The notes: generated by a model from the sequence alone, not told the origin. Counted from the first letter of the stretch, positions 32,351 to 41,309 are shown. The stretch is 64,000 nt of DNA from Planctomycetota bacterium (GCA_014240375.1 JAAZXB010000012.1:15829-79828), one strand, 5' to 3'. Program-made: numbers and translations.

Positions 32351-34516
32351 TTAACGCCCATCTTTGGCCTCCTCAGAGACTTCTTCCTGAGCATTTTGCT
32401 GGGCTTCATCCTGGGCTCCATCTTGGACTTCATCCTGTTGCGGGATCGGTCTCACCAACTCGATCACACTGCTCGATGGCATCGACTGATCGGCGCGTCG
32501 TGCGATCAGCAGTTCACCACCCTCGAGCGGCAGCGGCGTGCCTCCCCTCGAACTCTCCGGCCACGGTAGAATTGCCAACGCGGAACCATCGCGCAGCGAG
32601 TGGACCTCGATACCGGCAGCGGAAGGGATCCAGATACGGCCGGAGAAGATCCTCGGTTGGCCCCTCAGCAGTGGCTCCTGGAGAGACGTGGGATCATCCT
32701 TTTCTGTCATCGATTGTGCCGCCAGGGCGATGGCCCACGGTCCCGCCACTACCTCACCATTGCGTGGGTCGAGACCGGTCAGGTGAATCGTACTTTTCCC
32801 CACCCCGATGCTCCCATCGAACAGCCAGGCGATGCCATCGACGATCCCCAGCAGCGAGGTCTGGCGCCCCGCCGGATGGCTCCAGCGGATGTGCCAGGAA
32901 TCTTTCTCGAGGGCGATCAACATCCGTCCATCTGGCGGCAATAGAAGCCACGGGATCGACTCATCCTCCGGCACCTGGATCGGTGAGTTGGAACGGGGTC
33001 GTAATCCCGGGTAGGCAAGGAAACGCTGGTTGCCCCAACGAATATCACTGAGGCTCGGCAACTCCTCGAAGCGCCATCGTGGCAGATAGAAGGTGGCACG
33101 GTGTGCTCCGCTACTGGCGGACAGGCATTCGATGGCTCCGCCGGAACGACTCACCAGAAGATCATCTCCAGATCGTGCCAGCGAAGCGGAGAGGATCTTG
33201 TCGCGAAGGTCATTGAGAGAGTGGGCTTCCAGTTCTCGTACCTCGAGTTGACGTCGCCACAATTCCTTGCCGTGGGCCAGATCGAAGGAGAATACCCACG
33301 TCTCGAGGGTCGACCACCCGCGTGTCGCCAGCAGCCATAGCCGATCGCCTTCGATCAGCGGCACCGGACAGGCACTGAATCCTTCGCTGGCGATGGGGGC
33401 GACCCAGGAGGAGCTGGGAGGTTTCTGAGGATCTGGAATTTCGAGCACCACCGCTTCCAGCCAGCCAAGATCTTTCCACGGCCCGCTCTCGATAATGATG
33501 TTGGTGGAAGGTCGCTGATATTGGCGTGGCGTCCGAAGCAGGAAGACGCAGCGATCACCGCTACTGACCGGAATCTCGGGAACACTGATGAACGGCAGTT
33601 GGGTGCGACCGGGGGACTCATCGGGGCGTGGGACCTGCCATTGCCACGCTTCTCGGGTCGGTTCATCGAGATCGATCGCCACTACACGATGGCCGTTGCC
33701 GAAGAGTGCCGTCCTCTGGCCCAGTAGCGGGAACAGGTCCGACAGCGGATGGCGCCGCGTCCACACCCGGGCTTTGCGATGGGCGGTCGCCTCCGGACCT
33801 GTCTCCGGCATCGGGATCGCCAGTGAACCCTCGACGCGGCTTGCCGCCGACTGTACCGGTGGTTGGATCAACGGTCCGTCACTGCGTCTCCAGGGCCCTT
33901 CCAGCGGCGGCGTACCCGCCAGCCAGCGCAGCCAATTGGGGTCGATCCCTGCACCAATTCCAGGTCGCTGCAGGAGTGCCCAGGCGGCACTTCGATCGGC
34001 TCGCTCGAGCGCCTCTTGCAGGGCACGATTTGCCTCGATCGCTCGATCGGGTTGCCAGACCAGCGGATGGGCTCCATCGATGGGAATCGGACCGAGTCGT
34101 TTGAGGGCCACATCGAGAAAGCCATCCGGCAGCGACCGGCCAAATCGTTCCAGTTGCCGAGAGGTACGCCCGATGCGAAGGGTTCCACGGCTGCCGATCG
34201 AGATGGTCCGCAGTGGAAAGATCAGCGATCCATGCCGCGTCTCGAGCCAGTCTTGCAACTGCTGGGCTGCCGCGGCAGGATTCTCGCCGGCTCGTCGGGA
34301 GATCTGCAACAGCGAATCCACATCTTGGTGATGAGGGATTCGCCCGGGGCCAGCGGCGGGGGGGCCAGGCAACTCGTACTCCTGTGGAACTACCGCCTGT
34401 GGATCAGCCTGTGGATCAGCCTGTGGATCAGCCTGTGGATCGGCACTCCACACGGTCAGCAGTGGCAGCAGCAGCCACGTCACCAGCAGCAGGGTGAACT
34501 TCAAGCGGAAAACCAT
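32351..34516 (-). CDS. Secreted hypothetical protein with (ADPQ)4 repeat after the signal peptide; possible beta-propeller
   Basis: Start MVFRLKFTLLLVTWLLLPLLTVWS is a signal peptide, followed by ADPQADPQADPQADPQ. A C-terminal acidic QDEVQDGAQDEAQQNAQEE tail is present. No family recognised. Confidence 0.65.
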   Translation of the reverse strand: MVFRLKFTLLLVTWLLLPLLTVWSADPQADPQADPQADPQAVVPQEYELPGPPAAGPGRIPHHQDVDSLLQISRRAGENPAAAAQQLQDWLETRHGSLIFPLRTISIGSRGTLRIGRTSRQLERFGRSLPDGFLDVALKRLGPIPIDGAHPLVWQPDRAIEANRALQEALERADRSAAWALLQRPGIGAGIDPNWLRWLAGTPPLEGPWRRSDGPLIQPPVQSAASRVEGSLAIPMPETGPEATAHRKARVWTRRHPLSDLFPLLGQRTALFGNGHRVVAIDLDEPTREAWQWQVPRPDESPGRTQLPFISVPEIPVSSGDRCVFLLRTPRQYQRPSTNIIIESGPWKDLGWLEAVVLEIPDPQKPPSSSWVAPIASEGFSACPVPLIEGDRLWLLATRGWSTLETWVFSFDLAHGKELWRRQLEVRELEAHSLNDLRDKILSASLARSGDDLLVSRSGGAIECLSASSGAHRATFYLPRWRFEELPSLSDIRWGNQRFLAYPGLRPRSNSPIQVPEDESIPWLLLPPDGRMLIALEKDSWHIRWSHPAGRQTSLLGIVDGIAWLFDGSIGVGKSTIHLTGLDPRNGEVVAGPWAIALAAQSMTEKDDPTSLQEPLLRGQPRIFSGRIWIPSAAGIEVHSLRDGSALAILPWPESSRGGTPLPLEGGELLIARRADQSMPSSSVIELVRPIPQQDEVQDGAQDEAQQNAQEEVSEEAKDGR
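34397..34444 (-). repeat. 12-bp tandem repeat x4 (encodes ADPQ x4)
   Basis: +strand ctgtggatcagc x4. Confidence 0.9.
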
Positions 34517-34731
34517 GCCTCTCTCTAGACCTCTTCTTGCCACTTCTGGCGATTGAAAGCGTTATCGAACTGGATCACTGAACTGCGGCGATCGCGCTGT
34601 GCGGATGACTCGAAGTCTCCGTTTGGGCCCACATCACGACCCCATCCTTGCGTGTGAAACGGCTTCGCGCTACCAGGGTTGTTCCCGATACAGGTGCCCG
34701 ATAGGCTCGCCGTTTCGGAAAGGCAGATACC

Positions 34732-35220
34732 GTGACCGAATCCAAAACTCCATCGACGCGGCTGATGCTCGCCTCCGAGGCCCAGACCGAGGCGCTAGGT
34801 GAGCGGATCGGCGCTGTGGCCCGGGCCGGCCTGGTGGTGGGCCTGTACGGGGATCTGGGAGCTGGAAAAACGGCTCTGGTGCGTGGTCTGGCCCGGGGAA
34901 TGGCTCTCGATGGCCGGGTTCGCAGCCCTACCTTTACCATCGCCTCACTCCACCGAGGAGTGGTGCCACTGCTTCATGTCGACGCCTATCGCCTTGAGGA
35001 TCCCACCGAACTGGCGCTTCACGGCTGGCAGGAATGGCATCAAGAGGGGGTGATCGCGGTGGAATGGGCGCAACGGGTCGAATCGATGCTCCCACCGCGA
35101 CATCTGAGGATCGAACTGTCTCATCGGGGTGAGGAACTTCGTCAGGGCCACATCCAGGTGCGGGGAGAGGGGCAAGACGATGCGGTGGAGCAGGCTTTTC
35201 TTGCCGCGATCGTTTGCTGA
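34732..35220 (+). CDS. tsaE: tRNA t6A37 biosynthesis ATPase TsaE
   Basis: GDLGAGKT P-loop, RSPTFTI and HVDAYRL motifs. GTG start; alternative ATG 34765. Confidence 0.8.
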   Translation: MTESKTPSTRLMLASEAQTEALGERIGAVARAGLVVGLYGDLGAGKTALVRGLARGMALDGRVRSPTFTIASLHRGVVPLLHVDAYRLEDPTELALHGWQEWHQEGVIAVEWAQRVESMLPPRHLRIELSHRGEELRQGHIQVRGEGQDDAVEQAFLAAIVC

Positions 35221-35305
35221 AGCAACTTGAAAGCAATCTCGTGGGCTTCACAATCAGTGGGCCCGACATTTCCATTTCCCCAGACCCGGGCAGGATCGAG
35301 AAACG

Positions 35306-35578
35306 ATGCCGAGACGCCGCCATGGTGGAGCCGGGAGAGGCTCCGAACCCGATGACGCCACCGATCAAGATGCCGCAGGCTGGCTTCTCGATGGCCTGGC
35401 GATCCGTCCGCCTCTCGAGGAGTTCCGGCGACTGTTCGAGATGAAGAAGAGAGCTTTTGAAGGCAAGGTCGATGCCGAGAGTTTACGCAAGTACGAGCAG
35501 GCGCGTCGTCTCGGAGAGAAATTCATCGCAGAGCAGGACTACGACCAGGAGACGGGTCCGAGGGGGGCGTCTTGCTGA
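35306..35578 (+). CDS. Small hypothetical ORF (doubtful)
   Basis: 90 codons with no recognisable family and rare codons (tta, aga). It overlaps the likely ribosome binding site and start of the next gene. It may simply be a 5' UTR. Confidence 0.2.
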   Translation: MPRRRHGGAGRGSEPDDATDQDAAGWLLDGLAIRPPLEEFRRLFEMKKRAFEGKVDAESLRKYEQARRLGEKFIAEQDYDQETGPRGASC

Positions 35579-38500
35579 TTCGCAGCCTTCGAGCCGAGGG
35601 ATTCTTGAAGTTCAGAAAACTTCGTATCGATAATTTTCCCCGTCGCGCCCTGATCGGAATTGTCGGACCCAACGAGAGTGGCAAATCGAGTATCGGGCAA
35701 CTGTTCCAGTTCGCTCTCTTTGGTTCAACCCATCACATGGTGCGCGGTTCGATCACCGACTTGATTCACTGGGACGATGATCATTGTGTGGTCGAACTCG
35801 ATTTCGAACATGCCGATGAAGGGTATCGGATCTGGCGCGAGATGGACCGCTTCGGCACCTCCTTTGCGCGACTGGTTCGGATCGACAAGTCGGGGGGGCC
35901 GCCGGGTGAAGAGATCGCCTCGGGAGCACTCCAGGTGCAGCGAGAAGTGCAGAGACGCTTTCACCTCGGCGCCGGAGAAACGATGCACTCCTTCTACCTG
36001 GCAGAGCGGGAATCGGTCACCACCCCGGAGCAGTTCAGATCCTTCCTCGATCGGGTGGCGGGAATCGATGTGCTCCAGGGAGCACGGGGAGAAGCGAGTC
36101 AGGCCCTCGATCTGCTGGAGAAAGATTTCACCTCGGTGCAGGAAGAGATCCACCGCAATGACCTGCACATTCAGCGTCTACAACCCAATATCGACAAGAT
36201 TCCAGATCTCGAAGAGGAACTGAAGGTCAGAGATTCCAAGGTCGAGGAAGCTCGCGCTCACGGGCGTGAGATGCAACGACTGGTGGAGCAGGAACTGAAA
36301 AAGCGTGACGAGGTTCAGAAGATCCAGCTCGAATTGCGATCCATCGATACTCTGATCGCTTCCGAGTCGCTGAGAAAGAGCAATGGCTTGATCGGGTTGC
36401 TACAAGCGGACCTGGCTCCGGAGCCTTTGCGCGACCAGGATTCCATCATCACTCCGCTGCGCGATGGATTGGAGCAGGTCTCCGATGCATGCAAGATCCG
36501 CGCAGAACTCGAGCAATGCGTGATCGACTCCATCGAGTCGTTAAAAGCACGTCTCGAAGGAGATCAAGAGGGGTCGATTGGCACCGAGAAAGAACTCCAG
36601 GAGCAAGAGATTCGCAACTCCTCGACCTCGCGGGTGCGCCATCGCGCAGGAGCCTTGGTGCTCTTCATCGCTGGCTTGGTGGGGATGGTGCTTGGCCTCG
36701 ATCTTGAACTGGACTGGGGAATCGGCCAGAAGATTCAATTCCTGGCCCAGATGGAGCCGGAAAAGGGGATCGGATTTCTGGTGGCTGCATTCTTTGCCTT
36801 CCTCTTCGTCGCTGCCTGTTGGTTGTCGACCCGCGCATCTCAATGTCTTCAGAAGACCTTCGATGCTCAGGGCATCCTGTCGCGATTGCAGATGGAGCAG
36901 AATGTCGGAAACAGTTCACTGGAAGCGGCGAGGGCGCATGTGTCCCGTTCATCGGGTGGGCTCGATCCTGGCGACGACATCGGAGAATGTCGGGTCCGTT
37001 CTGTACAAGAACACCTGGAATCTTTACGTGCTGCTCGCCGTGAGATCCACGGAGTCATGGGCGATCTGCCAGGCGAATTCTTGGCGGGGAAGTTGAAGAG
37101 TGCACTCGATCGAGTGCGCGCGACCCTCAAGGAGCGTCGTAAGTCGATGGATGAGTCCAGTGACTCGGTCAAACGCCTACGCTCCAAGAGTGATCGCATC
37201 CAGTCGGAGATTCGTGAGTATCAGAATCAGGACGGGCGTCGCCAGGCGTTGTCCGAGGTTTCTGACGGGAGTCGCAAGAAGTCACTGGCGATTCGCGATG
37301 AGATGGACATTCATCGACTGCTGGTCGAGTTGCTCGATGAAACCATCGAGTCGGTGCGGATGCGTGCTGGTCCCAGTCTTGGCAAGGGACTGTGCCGACT
37401 GCTGCCGCATCTGACCGGCGGCCGCTACCGTGATGCTCAGGTGACGCCAGAGTTCGAGATCCGTCTCTTCACTGGAGATAAGAGTGATTTTCTCCAGACT
37501 CATGAGCTTTCAGGGGGCACCTTGCAGGGGCTTTCCTTTGGCTTCCGTCTCGCCTTTGCCCAGGCTTTTGTGCGGGCGGTCACGGGTGCGCCACAGTTCC
37601 TCTTCCTCGATGAACCGTTCCCAGCGATGGACCGTGAGCGAGTCTTGCGAACCCTCCAGGCACTTCCACGTTTGAGTCAAGAATTGAGCCAGGTGATCGT
37701 TGCGCATCCCGATCTGGATCCCGCAGCTCGTCAGAGTTTTGATCTGTTGATCGAGACCGATCAATCTTCCGACCGGCTCGAGATCGATCTGGAGGATATG
37801 TCTCTGCCAGAGGTCTCTGCCCCTCGACGAGAACCGGTACAGATGAGCCCCACGATCCCCAGAAGTGAACCTGCCGCTCGTCGGGAGTCCGCGTCACGTC
37901 GAGAGTCCAGACCACGTCGCGATTCTGCTCCGCATCGCGAGTCTGCGCCACGTCGCGATTCTGCTCCGCATCGCGAGTCTGCTTCGCGAGGAGAGTCTGC
38001 GCCACGTCGGGAGTCTGCGCCACGTCGGGAGTCAGCGCCGCGTCGCGATTCTGCTCCGCGAGGAGAGTCTGCGCCACGTCGGGAGTCTGCGCCACGTCGA
38101 GAGTCTGCGCCACGTCGAGAGTCAGCGCCGCGTCGCGATTCTGCTCCGCGAGGAGAGTCTGCGCCGCGAGGAGAGTCTGCGCCGCGTCGCGATTCTACTC
38201 CGCGAGGAGAGTCCGCGTCACGTCGGGAGTCTGCTCCGCGTCGAGAGCCTTCTCCGCGTCGCGATTCTGCTCCGCGTCGAGAAGCCGGTTCCGGTCGAGA
38301 GTCCGCGGGACCACCGATCGAGTCGGATGACACCACTCGGCCCGCCAGATCCAGCGGCGACGATGGTCGCCGCCGTAGAGAAGCACGCAGTAACGAAGCA
38401 CGCAGTAACGAAGCACGCAGTAACGAAGCACGCAGTAACGAAGCACGCAGTAACGAAGCACGCAGTAACGAAGCACGCAGTAACGAAGCACGCAGTAACG

Positions 38501-39150
38501 ACCGACGAGAGCCTTCGCAAACGGCTCCATCGGACAAAGCAGTCGACGATTCGAGGAGACGTCGGAAGCCGCAGTCGCCCGCCGCATCGTCCGCCGCATC
38601 GTCCGCCGCATCGTCCGCTGCATCGTCGGCAGAATCGTCGGCAGAATCGTCGGCAGAATCGTCGGCAGAATCGTCGGCAGAATCGAAACGTGAAATGAGT
38701 TCGCGTAAGCCTGTCCGGGATGGCCGATCGAACGCCACTCCCGAGAGGAGGGGATCCGCGGCCCGCGAACCGCAACCCCAGACCACGGAAGATGCCGCCG
38801 AGTCTGGTACGCGCCGCCCGGCAAAACCGTCGAAACGACCTGCAGAGAAACGACCTGCAGAGAAACAATCTGCAGAGAAACGACCTGCAGAGAAACAATC
38901 TGCAGAGAAACGACCTGCAGAGAGACGACCATCCCCCGACTGGCCGAGTTACGCCGACTCGAAGCGAGGGCCCGACCCGGAGGCGAAGCCTCGTTCGCCT
39001 GCGGCGGCGAAGCCTGCCCGCAAGGAGTCGCGACAGCAGAAGCCTCCCGCTGCGGCACCCGAGTCCCCTCCGGCGGCCTCGACCCCTCCGCCAAAACGAT
39101 CTGCCATCAGCGACTTCAAGCCCGATGACTGGACGATTCCGGAAGCATGA
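35572..39150 (+). CDS. Rad50/SbcC/SMC-like ABC ATPase with transmembrane hairpin in the coiled-coil region and a ~400-aa low-complexity repeat tail
   Basis: TTG start with GAGGGGGG 6 nt upstream. The N-terminal head has LKFRKLRIDNFP...IVGPNESGKSS (Walker A, AAA_23/SMC_N-type). The C-terminal head has THELSGGTLQG (signature motif) and FLFLDEPF (Walker B/D-loop). Between them are coiled-coil-like segments and two hydrophobic helices (ALVLFIAGLVGMVLGL, IGFLVAAFFAFLFVAACWL) near nt 36640-36840. The tail is encoded by four tandem-repeat arrays: ESAPRR-like about 24 times, EARSN 8 times, AASS/AESS 9 times, KRPAEKQSAE about 3 times. Confidence 0.8.
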   Translation: MLIRSLRAEGFLKFRKLRIDNFPRRALIGIVGPNESGKSSIGQLFQFALFGSTHHMVRGSITDLIHWDDDHCVVELDFEHADEGYRIWREMDRFGTSFARLVRIDKSGGPPGEEIASGALQVQREVQRRFHLGAGETMHSFYLAERESVTTPEQFRSFLDRVAGIDVLQGARGEASQALDLLEKDFTSVQEEIHRNDLHIQRLQPNIDKIPDLEEELKVRDSKVEEARAHGREMQRLVEQELKKRDEVQKIQLELRSIDTLIASESLRKSNGLIGLLQADLAPEPLRDQDSIITPLRDGLEQVSDACKIRAELEQCVIDSIESLKARLEGDQEGSIGTEKELQEQEIRNSSTSRVRHRAGALVLFIAGLVGMVLGLDLELDWGIGQKIQFLAQMEPEKGIGFLVAAFFAFLFVAACWLSTRASQCLQKTFDAQGILSRLQMEQNVGNSSLEAARAHVSRSSGGLDPGDDIGECRVRSVQEHLESLRAARREIHGVMGDLPGEFLAGKLKSALDRVRATLKERRKSMDESSDSVKRLRSKSDRIQSEIREYQNQDGRRQALSEVSDGSRKKSLAIRDEMDIHRLLVELLDETIESVRMRAGPSLGKGLCRLLPHLTGGRYRDAQVTPEFEIRLFTGDKSDFLQTHELSGGTLQGLSFGFRLAFAQAFVRAVTGAPQFLFLDEPFPAMDRERVLRTLQALPRLSQELSQVIVAHPDLDPAARQSFDLLIETDQSSDRLEIDLEDMSLPEVSAPRREPVQMSPTIPRSEPAARRESASRRESRPRRDSAPHRESAPRRDSAPHRESASRGESAPRRESAPRRESAPRRDSAPRGESAPRRESAPRRESAPRRESAPRRDSAPRGESAPRGESAPRRDSTPRGESASRRESAPRREPSPRRDSAPRREAGSGRESAGPPIESDDTTRPARSSGDDGRRRREARSNEARSNEARSNEARSNEARSNEARSNEARSNEARSNDRREPSQTAPSDKAVDDSRRRRKPQSPAASSAASSAASSAASSAESSAESSAESSAESSAESKREMSSRKPVRDGRSNATPERRGSAAREPQPQTTEDAAESGTRRPAKPSKRPAEKRPAEKQSAEKRPAEKQSAEKRPAERRPSPDWPSYADSKRGPDPEAKPRSPAAAKPARKESRQQKPPAAAPESPPAASTPPPKRSAISDFKPDDWTIPEA
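37870..38930 (+). repeat. Four adjacent in-frame tandem repeat arrays (18-bp x~24 at ~37870-38300; 15-bp gaagcacgcagtaac x8 at 38379-38500; 12-bp gccgcatcgtcc/gcagaatcgtcg x9 at 38581-38686; 15/30-bp cctgcagagaaacga/caatct at 38836-38926)
   Basis: Read directly from the sequence. The unit lengths are all multiples of 3. The long minus-strand ORFs across this region are repeat artifacts. Confidence 0.9.
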
Positions 39151-39911
39151 GCCCATCAGGAACTGCCACGGTGATCGATTCGACATCCACTCGTCGATGC
39201 ATCATCGCAGCGGACTTGCACTGCGATGGGTCGGCGCGGCGGCTGGCGATGCTGGAGGCTCTTTTGCGCAGCTGTCGCCAGCTGGATGCGAGTTGTTACC
39301 TGCTCGGAGACCTGTTTGACGTCTGGCTTGGACCGGGACAGTTGGCTCTCCAGCAGACGCGTCGGGAAGTGGAAGCCTTGCAACGTGCGGTGGCTGCGAA
39401 CATCGATGTGGTGGTGATTCCGGGAAATCGCGACTTCTTGCTCGACGAAGCGTTCGAACGTGCCACCGGGGTGGTTGTCGGGGGCGATCATCTATTGCTC
39501 GAGACCGGCGATCAACGGTGGCACCTGTCCCATGGAGACCTGTTCGGTACAGCCGATGTCGGATACCAGCGCCTTCGCAAGATCTTGCGAAGCGGACCGT
39601 TCCGAATGCTGGTTCGCCACATGCCGCTGCTGTTGTGTCGCGCCCTCGCCACTTTTTTGCGTCGTCGTTCTCGCAAATCTTTGCAGCGCAAGGATCCGGC
39701 GCGGATTCAGCCGGACCTGCAGGTGATCGGGCAACTGGTGGAGAGCGGTTTTGACCAGGTGGTGTGTGGCCACTACCATCGACCCAGTGAGGAATTTCTG
39801 GAGCGGGGGGGGAGTTGCGGAATCTTCACCGTTCTCGAGGCGTTCGAGGATCGCGGGGCCCATCTCTTCATCGAGGACGGAGTGGTGGAACTCCGATACC
39901 TTCCGTCATGA
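39147..39911 (+). CDS. LpxH-like calcineurin-type metallophosphoesterase (UDP-2,3-diacylglucosamine hydrolase family)
   Basis: The motifs are AADLHCDG, LGDLFDVWLG, GNRDFLLDE, SHGDLF and GHYHR. The GDLFDxW plus GNRD pattern matches LpxH rather than SbcD/Mre11, which have GDxFD plus GNHD. The start overlaps the ATPase stop (ATGA); an alternative GTG lies about 24 nt downstream. Confidence 0.7.
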   Translation: MSPSGTATVIDSTSTRRCIIAADLHCDGSARRLAMLEALLRSCRQLDASCYLLGDLFDVWLGPGQLALQQTRREVEALQRAVAANIDVVVIPGNRDFLLDEAFERATGVVVGGDHLLLETGDQRWHLSHGDLFGTADVGYQRLRKILRSGPFRMLVRHMPLLLCRALATFLRRRSRKSLQRKDPARIQPDLQVIGQLVESGFDQVVCGHYHRPSEEFLERGGSCGIFTVLEAFEDRGAHLFIEDGVVELRYLPS

Positions 39912-39948: not shown

Positions 39949-40944
39949 ATGATCGGACTCAAGGCTCCACCACTGGCGGTCATCGTCGCAGGACCGACTT
40001 GCGGTGGCAAATCGCAACTGGCGCAGAAGATCGCCGAGCAGATGAACTGGCCGGTACATGTGATGGACTCGATGAAGGTCTATCGAGGTATGGATATCGG
40101 CAGCGCCAAGCCGTCTGAGGAGCTACGGCAGGGGCGTCCCTTCACGATGGTTGATCTGGTCGACCCCTGGCAAGAGTTCACCGTGTTCGACTGGTTACAG
40201 GCGTTGGCCGCCCAGGTCCCCACCGATCAGCCCTGGCTCTTCAGCGGTGGCACCAGTTTCTATCTACACGCCTTGCGAGAGGGGATCTTTGCCGGGCCCG
40301 GGTCCGATCCGCAGATCCGTCAACGTCTCGCCCACCAGGGACAGACCTCACCTGCGGGTACTCTCCATCAGCGCCTGGTGGAGGTCGATCCGGAAGTCGC
40401 ACGACAGATCCACCCCAACAACCACAAGCGCATCATCCGGGCGCTGGAGGTGTATGAGATCAGTGGCGAACCGATCACCGTGTGGCACCAACGACGGGTT
40501 CCCATCATCGATGCCCGGCGGACACTTCTACTGGGGGTGCATCGCCAGCGAGAAGAGATCCATCAGAGGATCGCTCGGCGCATCGAGGCGATGTTCGAGG
40601 CGGGTTGGGTGGCGGAGGTGGAGCAGTTACTGGCGAATCACGATCCTCCCTGGAGTCATACCGCGGCCCAATCGATCGGGTACCAGCAAATCGCCAAGGC
40701 ACTACAAGACGGCACCGACCCCCACCAACAAGTTGAATCGATCCAGGTCAAGACTCGTGCGCTGGTTCGATCCCAGATGGCCTGGGCTCGCAAGTTGCCC
40801 ATCGAATGGTATTCACCTGAAGAGGCAGCACTCGCTCTCGAGCGAGTGCAACAGGTGATGTCCGAGGTGGAGTCAGGAGGCGAGATCACTGCCGCTCCCG
40901 CCAGCCGATTGAAGTTGCATGAGAATCAGGAGAATCAGGATTGA
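39949..40944 (+). CDS. miaA: tRNA dimethylallyltransferase
   Basis: VIVAGPTCGGKSQLA P-loop, VMDSMKVYRGMDIGSAKP, and the overall MiaA layout. The upstream 66 codons of the tracked ORF were trimmed. Confidence 0.85.
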   Translation: MIGLKAPPLAVIVAGPTCGGKSQLAQKIAEQMNWPVHVMDSMKVYRGMDIGSAKPSEELRQGRPFTMVDLVDPWQEFTVFDWLQALAAQVPTDQPWLFSGGTSFYLHALREGIFAGPGSDPQIRQRLAHQGQTSPAGTLHQRLVEVDPEVARQIHPNNHKRIIRALEVYEISGEPITVWHQRRVPIIDARRTLLLGVHRQREEIHQRIARRIEAMFEAGWVAEVEQLLANHDPPWSHTAAQSIGYQQIAKALQDGTDPHQQVESIQVKTRALVRSQMAWARKLPIEWYSPEEAALALERVQQVMSEVESGGEITAAPASRLKLHENQENQD

Positions 40945-40988: not shown

Positions 40989-41038
40989 AGGCACGATAAA
41001 AAAACAGGCACAAAAAAACAGGCCCGGATGCTTGAGCA
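40989..41038 (-). terminator. Intrinsic terminator for the minus-strand lipoprotein gene
   Basis: On the minus strand a CAGGCCCGG/CCGGGCCTG hairpin (11-nt loop) is followed by TTTTTTTGTGCCTGTTTTTTT. Confidence 0.6.
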
Positions 41039-41081
41039 CCCGGGCCTGAGTCGATCGCTACTGGCCGACGAAAACGTGCGA

Positions 41082-41309
41082 CTAGTACTGTTCGATCGGA
41101 CGGTCGTCGAGATCCCAGACGATGCGGTCGATGTCGGTGCGTGCAGCCCGCAGGTCATCACCCATCTGACGGAAGACTCGCTTCCAGTACAGGCTCGAGG
41201 CCACGGTACTCTTGGGGCCCGAGGAACAGCCGGCGAAGGCCAGGGTCATTCCAAGGCACAGGAGCAGGACGAAAGTACGTGTAGTTCGACGATTGGAGTT
41301 AGGACTCAT
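41082..41309 (-). CDS. Small secreted/lipoprotein-like hypothetical protein (75 aa)
   Basis: Strong GAGGGAGGG Shine-Dalgarno before the ATG. Signal peptide MSPNSNRRTTRTFVLLLCLGMTLAFAGC. A terminator follows. Confidence 0.55.
   Translation of the reverse strand: MSPNSNRRTTRTFVLLLCLGMTLAFAGCSSGPKSTVASSLYWKRVFRQMGDDLRAARTDIDRIVWDLDDRPIEQY

Follow-up and report, generated by a model that had tools for sequence, protein, structure and literature searches.

A Rad50/SMC-like ATPase of a planctomycete with a predicted transmembrane hairpin at its arm apex and a small helical protein encoded upstream

ATPases of the SMC/Rad50 type are regarded as soluble proteins whose arms are closed by a hinge or a zinc hook. 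A gene located in a 64,000-nucleotide stretch of DNA from a Planctomycetota bacterium (GCA_014240375.1, JAAZXB010000012.1:15829-79828; hereafter the window, positions being counted from its first letter) codes for an ATPase of this type in which two strongly hydrophobic segments occupy the place of the hinge or hook, and its stop codon overlaps the start codon of a phosphoesterase gene. This arrangement raises the questions of how such a protein is built, which neighbouring product is its partner and what the resulting machine might do. An initial annotation, made from the sequence alone, had interpreted the protein as a membrane-embedded Rad50/SMC-like ATPase translationally coupled to an LpxH-like phosphoesterase, and had considered roles in chromosome organisation, in defence or repair and in envelope biogenesis. 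The features of the ATPase on which the answer depends are the following:

35572–39150, plus strand: gene for the Rad50/SMC-like ABC ATPase with the predicted membrane hairpin (TTG start, 1192 residues).
35572–36066, plus strand: N-terminal half of the ABC head, residues 1–165 (invariant columns, alignment to Rad50 chains).
36067–36645, plus strand: N-terminal helical arm, residues 166–358 (AlphaFold2, AF2, helices 165–208, 210–257, 263–276, 290–329 and 336–380).
36646–36705, plus strand: predicted transmembrane (TM) helix 1, AGALVLFIAGLVGMVLGLDL, residues 359–378 (hydrophobicity, position kept in all core homologs).
36706–36768, plus strand: predicted short external loop, acidic and with few Lys or Arg, residues 379–399 (Lys and Arg statistics of the family).
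36769–36825, plus strand: predicted TM helix 2, IGFLVAAFFAFLFVAACWL, residues 400–418 (hydrophobicity, AF2 helix 401–459 continuing into the arm).
36826–37407, plus strand: C-terminal helical arm, residues 419–612 (AF2 helices 401–459, 476–496 and 509–614).
37408–37806, plus strand: C-terminal half of the ABC head, residues 613–745 (Pfam, invariant columns, alignment to M. jannaschii Rad50).

All motifs quoted in the initial annotation, including the N-terminal head string FLKFRKLRIDNFP, were found in the translation of the gene. Pfam searches returned AAA_23 (5.9e-13) and SMC_N (3e-10), the latter extending over residues 3–711, as expected for a split ABC head whose halves are parted by a long insert. 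The best NCBIfam matches were archaeal Rad50 models (58.5 bits against an equivalog cutoff of 1000). When the family profile was compared with PDB sequences, Rad50 of M. jannaschii came first (5f3w, 2.9e-21), and a Foldseek search with the AF2 model also gave Rad50 as the first match (7zr1, 8.6e-16), followed by Smc5/6, MukB, LmuB and JetC. The protein is, as first proposed, a Rad50/SMC-type ABC ATPase. The Walker A motif GPNESGKS (residues 32–39, nucleotides 35665–35688), the ABC signature LSGGT (residues 646–650, nucleotides 37507–37521), the Walker B motif FLFLDE (residues 676–681, nucleotides 37597–37614) and the D-loop AMD in the C-terminal half of the head are all present and invariant among the aligned relatives. 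Four arginines of head lobe I (R86, R89, R93 and R100) are also invariant, and R100 aligns with K99 of T. maritima Rad50, a DNA-contacting residue. Two other catalytic positions are altered. In the alignment to Rad50 chains, E145 (FYLAERE) falls on the Q-loop Gln, and this residue is Glu throughout the planctomycete core clade (nucleotides ~36004–36006 in the window) and Gln in distant members (FYLAQRE). The position of the H-loop His is taken by an invariant Pro713, next to which the window protein has His712 (both residues at nucleotides 37705–37710), and a few distant family members retain I-T-H there. These alterations suggest that the hydrolysis step has changed; taken together, the catalytic features would fit an ATP-binding, head-engaging protein that possibly hydrolyses ATP slowly or in a modified way and that retains a basic surface.

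Regarding the closure of the arms, a Pfam scan of the ATPase gave no match to the SMC hinge family, and the CxxC zinc-hook motif is absent from its entire 1192 residues. The two segments at the arm apex are the only strongly hydrophobic ones in the protein: their mean Kyte–Doolittle values over 19 residues are 2.27 (residues 360–378) and 2.55 (residues 400–418), and all other 19-mers reach 1.16 at most. On the Hessa scale, TM helix 2 gave a summed free energy of –3.0 kcal/mol. TM helix 1 is directly preceded by an Arg-rich flank (SRVRHR). In the AF2 model, which is of moderate quality (predicted local distance difference test, pLDDT, 74.6; predicted template modelling score, pTM, 0.38), helices 336–380 and 401–459 pass unbroken from the arms through the hydrophobic segments, TM helix 1 running on from the N-terminal arm as one helix. 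Among the 17 closest relatives (35–89% identity, all from Planctomycetota metagenome-assembled genomes, MAGs), the position and hydrophobicity of the segments are kept and their sequence is not, G368 alone being invariant. Statistics were then drawn from 143 family proteins with two such segments. Both segments lack any charged residue in 92 of them, the loop has a median length of 23 residues, and the frequency of Lys plus Arg per residue is 0.30 in the 15 residues before segment 1 and 0.25 after segment 2, falling to 0.064 in the loop. This pattern follows the positive-inside rule and indicates a hairpin with both termini in the cytoplasm (N-in/C-in) and a short external loop. The alternative that the segments are buried amphipathic coiled-coil helices was rejected, since they are uncharged, unique within the protein, conserved in position, variable in sequence and flanked according to the positive-inside rule in the 143 proteins. 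The arm apex is therefore predicted to be a genuine two-helix TM hairpin in place of a hinge or zinc hook, as the initial annotation had anticipated. An antiparallel pairing of the two arms was assumed from the family fold and from their equal lengths (~193 residues each). The short gammaproteobacterial proteins have unequal arms, with ~90 residues from the N-terminal head to TM helix 1 and ~180 from TM helix 2 to the C-terminal head (e.g., P0104, 644 residues, TM segments at 257 and 306), as compared with ~193 for both in the window; their C-terminal arm may fold back or hold an extra element.

To establish the extent of the family, the core profile was searched against 1.84 billion cluster representatives, and 371 proteins were matched at E≤1e-30 and 1678 at E≤1e-10. 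Among the retrieved proteins, 161 were at least 590 residues long, and the number of central hydrophobic segments was exactly two in 143 of these; most of the others had one segment barely below the threshold. In a genome scan, relatives turned up in further Planctomycetota, Kuenenia among them, as well as in about 40 Gammaproteobacteria. Many of the latter are sulfur-oxidising, and they include Sedimenticolaceae, Candidatus Thiodiazotropha, Chromatiales and a Solemya symbiont; the gammaproteobacterial proteins are 607–646 residues long and all contain the hairpin. A further 80 loci came from a metagenome scan in which distant members served as seeds, and 64 of the 71 full-length genes among them code for two segments. 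Three clear orthologs of planctomycete or gammaproteobacterial type came from MAGs deposited as "Bacillota bacterium" (L014, QNYK01000010.1), "Proteobacteria bacterium" (L032, JAFMMO010000141.1) and "Candidatus Bathyarchaeota archaeon" (L056, JAIVTC010000112.1), and these contigs are probably mis-binned or mislabelled. In public records the relatives go by no other names than "AAA family ATPase" and "SbcCD ATPase subunit". A search of the literature on SMC- and Rad50-like membrane proteins, which did not extend to one key paper on ABC-ATPase classification, yielded SbcE only and no paper describing a family of membrane-hairpin ATPases. By sequence, then, the membrane-hairpin Rad50-like proteins form a broad bacterial family and the window protein is no isolated case.

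The initial annotation had called the LpxH-like protein a partner of the ATPase and had proposed to look for its conservation next to homologs. Our survey of the gene neighbourhoods pointed instead to a small gene on the other side of the ATPase gene, which had been overlooked. Two features lie in this upstream region:

35227–35254, plus strand: sigma-70-like promoter match upstream of the partner gene (TTGAAA, 16-nucleotide spacer, CACAAT).
35306–35578, plus strand: small partner gene, 90 residues (DNA read, alignment, conserved position).

The TGA stop codon of the small gene lies inside the TTG start region of the ATPase gene (gtcTTGCTGA), so that both overlap by 7 nucleotides. Its product has a basic, disordered N-terminus followed by a conserved part made of two helices, with the motifs I-x-P-P-L-E-E-F-R-R-x-F-x-x-K-x-R-x-F-E-G and then Y-x-x-A-x-x-L-G. 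Homologs of 60–100 residues, sharing across phyla the two-helix core P-x-E-E-F ... R/E-R ... F-D ... A-x-x-L ... L, are encoded in an overlapping position just 5' of the ATPase gene in 74 of 83 loci and likewise in 60 of 65 further metagenome loci with enough upstream DNA. These loci cover both Planctomycetota and Gammaproteobacteria. The protein had no match in Pfam, NCBIfam or PADLOC families. We consider this small helical protein, apparently translationally coupled to the ATPase, as the conserved partner of the family; the window module thus carries two predicted central TM helices with positive-inside flanks and a small helical partner immediately upstream, the features that define it. 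Conserved motifs in the arms may indicate where the partner binds. The N-terminal arm carries at residues 194–214 a joint motif, RND-x-x-I-x-R-L-Q-P-N-I-x-K-I-P-x-L-E, in which N196, P205, I210, P211 and E214 are invariant, and residues 538–562 of the C-terminal arm contain the strongly conserved motif S-K-R-D-R-x-Q-S-E-I-R-E-Y-Q-N-Q-D-G-R-R-x-A-L-E-E, with S538, D541, R542, E549, Y550, Q553, G555, R556, L560 and E562 invariant. Both stretches stand at a similar height above the head, and they could plausibly form the docking site of the partner. The promoter match at 35227–35254, which comes from a consensus scan in a phylum whose promoters are poorly known, might possibly serve the operon.

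The phosphoesterase gene and the gene that follows it were located as follows:

39147–39911, plus strand: lpxH, UDP-2,3-diacylglucosamine diphosphatase, 254 residues (NCBIfam, PDB, motifs).
39949–40944, plus strand: miaA, tRNA isopentenyltransferase (Pfam IPPT 1.9e-63; start taken at MIGLKAPP...).

The only NCBIfam models matched by the phosphoesterase were those of LpxH, PRK05340 (122.4 bits, cutoff 134) and TIGR01854 (102.2, cutoff 190); the first of these scores lies just under its equivalog cutoff, as would be expected for a distant phylum. All nine matches to PDB sequences were LpxH proteins, aligned over nearly the full length including the lid (among them 5b49, 4.4e-22, 8qjz and 6ph9), and the alignment to P. 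aeruginosa LpxH (5b49) spans residues 21–239. The motifs DxH, GDxFxxW, GNRDFL, HGD, the lid motif D-x-x-Y-x-x-x-R and GHxH are present, residues D23, H25, D55, N94, R95, H129, D131, D137, Y140, R144, H209 and H211 are invariant in the ortholog alignment, and the NCBI name of the identical protein is LpxH, UDP-2,3-diacylglucosamine diphosphatase. By sequence the protein would be a genuine LpxH, an ordinary enzyme of lipid A synthesis, in line with its initial assignment to LpxH rather than SbcD/Mre11.

The linkage of lpxH to the ATPase gene was then considered. The TGA of the ATPase gene and the ATG of lpxH overlap as ATGA (gcATGAgc in the DNA read). In every core-clade locus with enough DNA the order is small open reading frame, ATPase gene, lpxH and miaA, and it is the same in locus L086, although its LpxH is only 35% identical and its ATPase is tailless. 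Outside this clade, no LpxH was encoded within ~5–6 kb at ~45 distant genome loci or at 80 metagenome loci of the ATPase family. In addition, a syntenic ortholog (L040) shows the order tsaE, small gene, ATPase gene, miaA and thiL without lpxH, indicating gain or loss of lpxH at precisely this place. This locus (CAUZHA010000023.1, 4860–11081) derives from a planctomycete labelled UBA1146, as are several core-clade MAGs, and its ATPase is 30% identical and has no tail. A more distant LpxH homolog outside the cluster is encoded alone among tRNA synthetase genes. Relatives show a similar overlap, often of 4 nucleotides, between lpxH and miaA, the gene of an unrelated tRNA enzyme, and we therefore read the ATGA overlap as a result of operon compaction and not as evidence of a complex. 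The coupling noted at the outset therefore held in part: the overlap is real and the tight adjacency extends across a deep planctomycete clade, but it is absent from L040 and from more than 120 other loci in the family. We read lpxH as sharing the operon in one planctomycete clade while lying outside the ATPase machine.

A long disordered tail, put at about 400 residues in the initial annotation, was found to comprise 447. Its features are:

37807–39147, plus strand: disordered tail, residues 746–1192 (composition, repeats).
37879–38282, plus strand: tail repeat array (RRESAP)n.
38380–38501, plus strand: tail repeat array (EARSN)8.
38575–38685, plus strand: tail repeat array (AASS/AESS)n.
38832–38930, plus strand: tail repeat array (KRPAE/KQSAE)n.
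39112–39147, plus strand: C-terminal peptide DFKPDDWTIPEA, conserved at the tail end.

Its 447 residues include 84 Arg, 79 Ser, 73 Ala, 61 Pro and 51 Glu, with a net charge of +29, and the four tandem-repeat arrays make up much of it. Tail length varies from 0 to 447 residues in relatives, the window tail being the longest seen, and the tails cannot be aligned except for F-x-P-D-D-W-[TV]-I-P(-E-A), which relatives retain at the very C-terminus as far as ~60% identity; more distant relatives end in the related forms FLAGIFD, EEWTLP and DIFATP. As a candidate SSB-tip or clamp-binding motif the peptide fitted poorly, since two extra residues follow I-P and there is no QLxLF. Residues ~770–905 (nucleotides 37879–38282) contain 16 RRxS sites in ~22 RRESAP/RRDSAP repeats, RRxS being a classic basophilic kinase consensus. 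In several related genomes a Ser/Thr kinase gene lies immediately upstream of the small partner gene, at these positions:

L003 and L004, 4397–5647.
L005, 4362–5579.
L086, 990–2291.

There is no kinase gene at that place in the window. The RRxS repeats together with the kinase genes of relatives hint that the tail may be regulated by phosphorylation.

The genomic context of the module was examined next. Immediately upstream in the window is tsaE:

34732–35220, plus strand: tsaE, upstream neighbour (Pfam TsaE 5.9e-35, conserved synteny).

The planctomycete modules are accompanied by rsfS, tsaE, miaA and lysS, the synteny from tsaE to miaA-lysS being conserved and miaA coming directly after lpxH in all core-clade loci. 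At gammaproteobacterial loci (L042–L082, L105–L166) two genes on the strand of the module enclose it, one for an RNase II-family exoribonuclease upstream (RNB 1.5e-48) and one for the DEAH helicase HrpB downstream (HrpB_C 2.5e-55). In B. subtilis, the exoribonuclease gene yhaM is likewise a neighbour of yhaN (PMC2811018). This may be coincidental synteny, or it may point to a link with RNA. Other neighbours are an SSB gene upstream in L084, ccm genes in L083 and dnaG-rpoD in L062 and L066. No copies of the module were found in 72,556 plasmids, in 50,697 phage records or in IMG/VR contigs. The module is chromosomal and stands in a housekeeping context.

Based on these results, we propose that the two-gene module, LpxH excluded, acts as an ATP-gated clamp tethering nucleic acid to the inner membrane, a reading to which we assign a probability of roughly 0.45. 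The N- and C-terminal halves of the ATPase would fold back along two arms of ~190 residues to form one cytoplasmic head, and the apex hairpin, whose two ends would lie in the cytoplasm and whose loop of ~20 residues would lie outside, would take the place of the zinc hook or hinge. The hairpins would fix the ATPase in the inner membrane, where they probably bring two protomers together, and ATP binding would engage the two heads. The small partner may bind near the conserved arm joint or the head, and engaged heads and partner would together clamp a polymer in the cytoplasm, for which DNA is the most likely candidate and RNA a possible one, and which would be held or processed at the membrane surface. 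The Arg/Ser-rich tail of the planctomycete proteins could serve as a flexible tether whose C-terminal peptide recruits a further partner. In favour of a nucleic-acid ligand are the invariant R86, R89, R93 and R100 and the neighbouring genes for RNase II, HrpB, SSB and DnaG-RpoD, to which B. subtilis SbcE, with its part in DNA repair and competence at the cell pole (PMC2811018), adds a precedent. Several points weigh against the clamp. Nucleic acid is a ligand that we infer, and the conserved arginines could serve otherwise; the neighbouring RNA and DNA genes may be mere synteny within single clades; and neither a nuclease nor a kleisin partner is present. Dimerisation through the hairpin is an assumption taken from the family fold, the quality of the AF2 model is moderate, and Pro in the H-loop and Glu in the Q-loop mean that the ATPase cycle may be atypical. 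The adjacency of the SMC-like gene to lpxH, lasting across lineages in which LpxH is 35% identical, also leaves room for a functional link.

Such a link is central to a role in the envelope, in which the membrane-anchored ATPase would scaffold or regulate LpxH and translational coupling would keep the two in fixed proportion. LpxH is a peripheral membrane enzyme acting at the cytoplasmic face of the inner membrane, where the ATPase would also be exposed, and the ATGA overlap in the window and the close linkage at all sufficiently long core-clade loci and at L086 could be explained in this way. The absence of LpxH near the ATPase at the ~45 distant genome loci and the 80 metagenome loci, the syntenic ortholog without lpxH, the distant LpxH homolog that stands alone and an overlap that recurs with miaA make the role improbable, and the corresponding suggestion of the initial annotation was weakened accordingly. 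The same gene pair could be taken as a double-strand-break nuclease complex of SbcE/SbcF or SbcCD type with the phosphoesterase as its Mre11-like nuclease, since an SMC-like ATPase adjoins a calcineurin-type phosphoesterase, as in sbcCD and yhaO-yhaN, the central domain of SbcE is hydrophobic and some relatives bear the automatic name "SbcCD ATPase subunit". This is very unlikely: the phosphoesterase matches LpxH models and structures only, over its whole length including the lipid-binding lid, and is missing from most of the ATPase family, the ATPase has no CxxC hook, and its match to Pfam AAA_27, the YhaN family, reaches 16.6 bits against a cutoff of 22 and is confined to the P-loop region.

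Two further explanations set LpxH aside, as the clamp does. The head-arm-hairpin-arm architecture would also suit a membrane tether or remodeller in which ATP-driven engagement of heads, within one membrane or between two, clusters, tethers or shapes membranes without any nucleic acid. The short external loop fits an anchor better than a sensor, and the family is prominent in Planctomycetota, Kuenenia and Chromatiales, groups (Kuenenia as an anammox bacterium) known for internal membranes. We nevertheless regard it as unlikely, given that the head resembles Rad50 in particular, with a basic patch retained at the DNA-binding position of Rad50, that the resemblance to dynamin-type proteins is one of design only and that no membrane-remodelling genes are conserved nearby. 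An SMC-like ATPase could, in turn, belong to an anti-phage or anti-plasmid defence system of Lamassu, MADS or Pbe type, for which there are weak PADLOC matches (mad3, 7e-20, in the C-terminal head; LmuB, 1.3e-15; PbeC) and the presence of LmuB and JetC among the Foldseek matches. The PADLOC matches are those of generic head similarity, no effector gene is present, the module keeps a fixed place among housekeeping genes across distant lineages, and copies are absent from the plasmid, phage and IMG/VR collections. Defence, which the initial annotation had also entertained, is on these grounds the most improbable of the roles considered.

Some other elements were observed around the operon. Between miaA and lysS, on the minus strand at ~41085–41290, there is a small gene for a putative lipoprotein with a signal peptide and a lipobox-like AGCSS, followed by conserved YWKRVFRQMGDD...DRIVWDLDDRPIEQY. 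It is 86% identical to the copy in L001, lacks any Pfam annotation in related loci and is followed by a strong GC-rich terminator-like hairpin with a T-run at 41019–41048. On the minus strand at 32351–34543, a 730-residue secreted-looking protein is encoded, with a DPQA tetrapeptide repeat near its N-terminus and a PQQ_2/BamB-like match below threshold (24.1 bits, threshold 27.6). Relatives have in the same position, between rsfS and tsaE, a protein of ~707–713 residues without a Pfam match.

The family may be of interest beyond this locus, as at least several hundred sequence clusters appear to have exchanged hinge or zinc-hook closure for a membrane anchor and a dedicated mini-protein, which implies a conserved and unstudied coupling of an ATP-gated clamp to the inner membrane. 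A basic cell-biological function is probable, such as nucleoid-membrane attachment, membrane-proximal handling of nucleic acids or membrane organisation. Housekeeping genes surround the module both in Planctomycetota and in the sulfur-oxidising Gammaproteobacteria, of which many are symbionts. More tentatively, and we would put this well short of an even chance, the module could represent an undescribed, phylogenetically broad two-component machine with a role distinct from that of all known SMC-like systems. It might then be an ATP-gated tether of chromosome or RNA-processing machinery to the inner membrane, or else an ABC-ATPase analogue of mitofusin- or dynamin-type membrane tethers, elaborated in planctomycetes with an Arg/Ser-rich and possibly phospho-regulated tail that bears a docking peptide. 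As regards annotation, the labels "AAA family ATPase" and "SbcCD ATPase subunit" conceal a membrane protein family in its own right, of which the link to LpxH is no functional signature. For SbcE of B. subtilis, itself poorly understood, the family provides a point of comparison.

Comparison with known systems places the ATPase nearest to Rad50/SbcC in its head. Both have a split ABC head, in which Walker A, signature, Walker B and D-loop are present, and long helical arms, presumed antiparallel in the window protein, Rad50 gives the best matches in sequence and structure, and a basic residue is found at the position of T. maritima Rad50 K99. Unlike Rad50/SbcC, the window protein has a predicted TM hairpin at the apex instead of a CxxC zinc hook, lacks an Mre11/SbcD partner, scores far below the Rad50 equivalog cutoff and has Pro for the H-loop His and, in its clade, Glu for the Q-loop Gln. 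With the condensin-type proteins SMC, MukB and JetC, some of which were among the structural matches, it shares the head-arm architecture and presumably ATP-driven head engagement, but its arms are ~190 instead of 300–400 residues long, it is predicted to be membrane-embedded, and it has neither a hinge domain nor recognisable kleisin or KITE partners. In mitofusin, atlastin and bacterial dynamin-like proteins, a head that dimerises in a nucleotide-dependent manner is joined by a helical stalk to a membrane hairpin of two helices, after which comes a return helix or tail. The window protein, whose head would dimerise in the same manner, resembles them by design only, since theirs is a GTPase head of unrelated fold, and the likeness is a mechanistic analogy and not a family assignment.

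The initial annotation knew of no SMC-like ATPase embedded in the membrane at its arm apex, and in this it overlooked B. subtilis SbcE (YhaN), an SMC-like protein that lacks CxxC and has, at its centre between the arms, a hydrophobic and insoluble domain (PMC2811018). SbcE forms polar foci and acts in DNA repair and in competence at the cell pole, and yhaN adjoins a metallophosphoesterase gene (yhaO, SbcF) close to the exoribonuclease gene yhaM; its central domain is not called transmembrane in that study (PMC2811018). Pfam AAA_27 and this description set SbcE apart from the hairpin family: the window protein stays below the AAA_27 cutoff with a match over residues 3–55 only, and distant family members reach at best 22.3 bits, in the P-loop alone. 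The partners also differ, that of the window ATPase being predicted as a helical protein of the 60–100-residue type and not an SbcD-like nuclease, and the adjoining phosphoesterase as LpxH. SbcE/YhaN is nonetheless the closest work-alike, an SMC-like head being combined in both proteins with a hydrophobic central domain.

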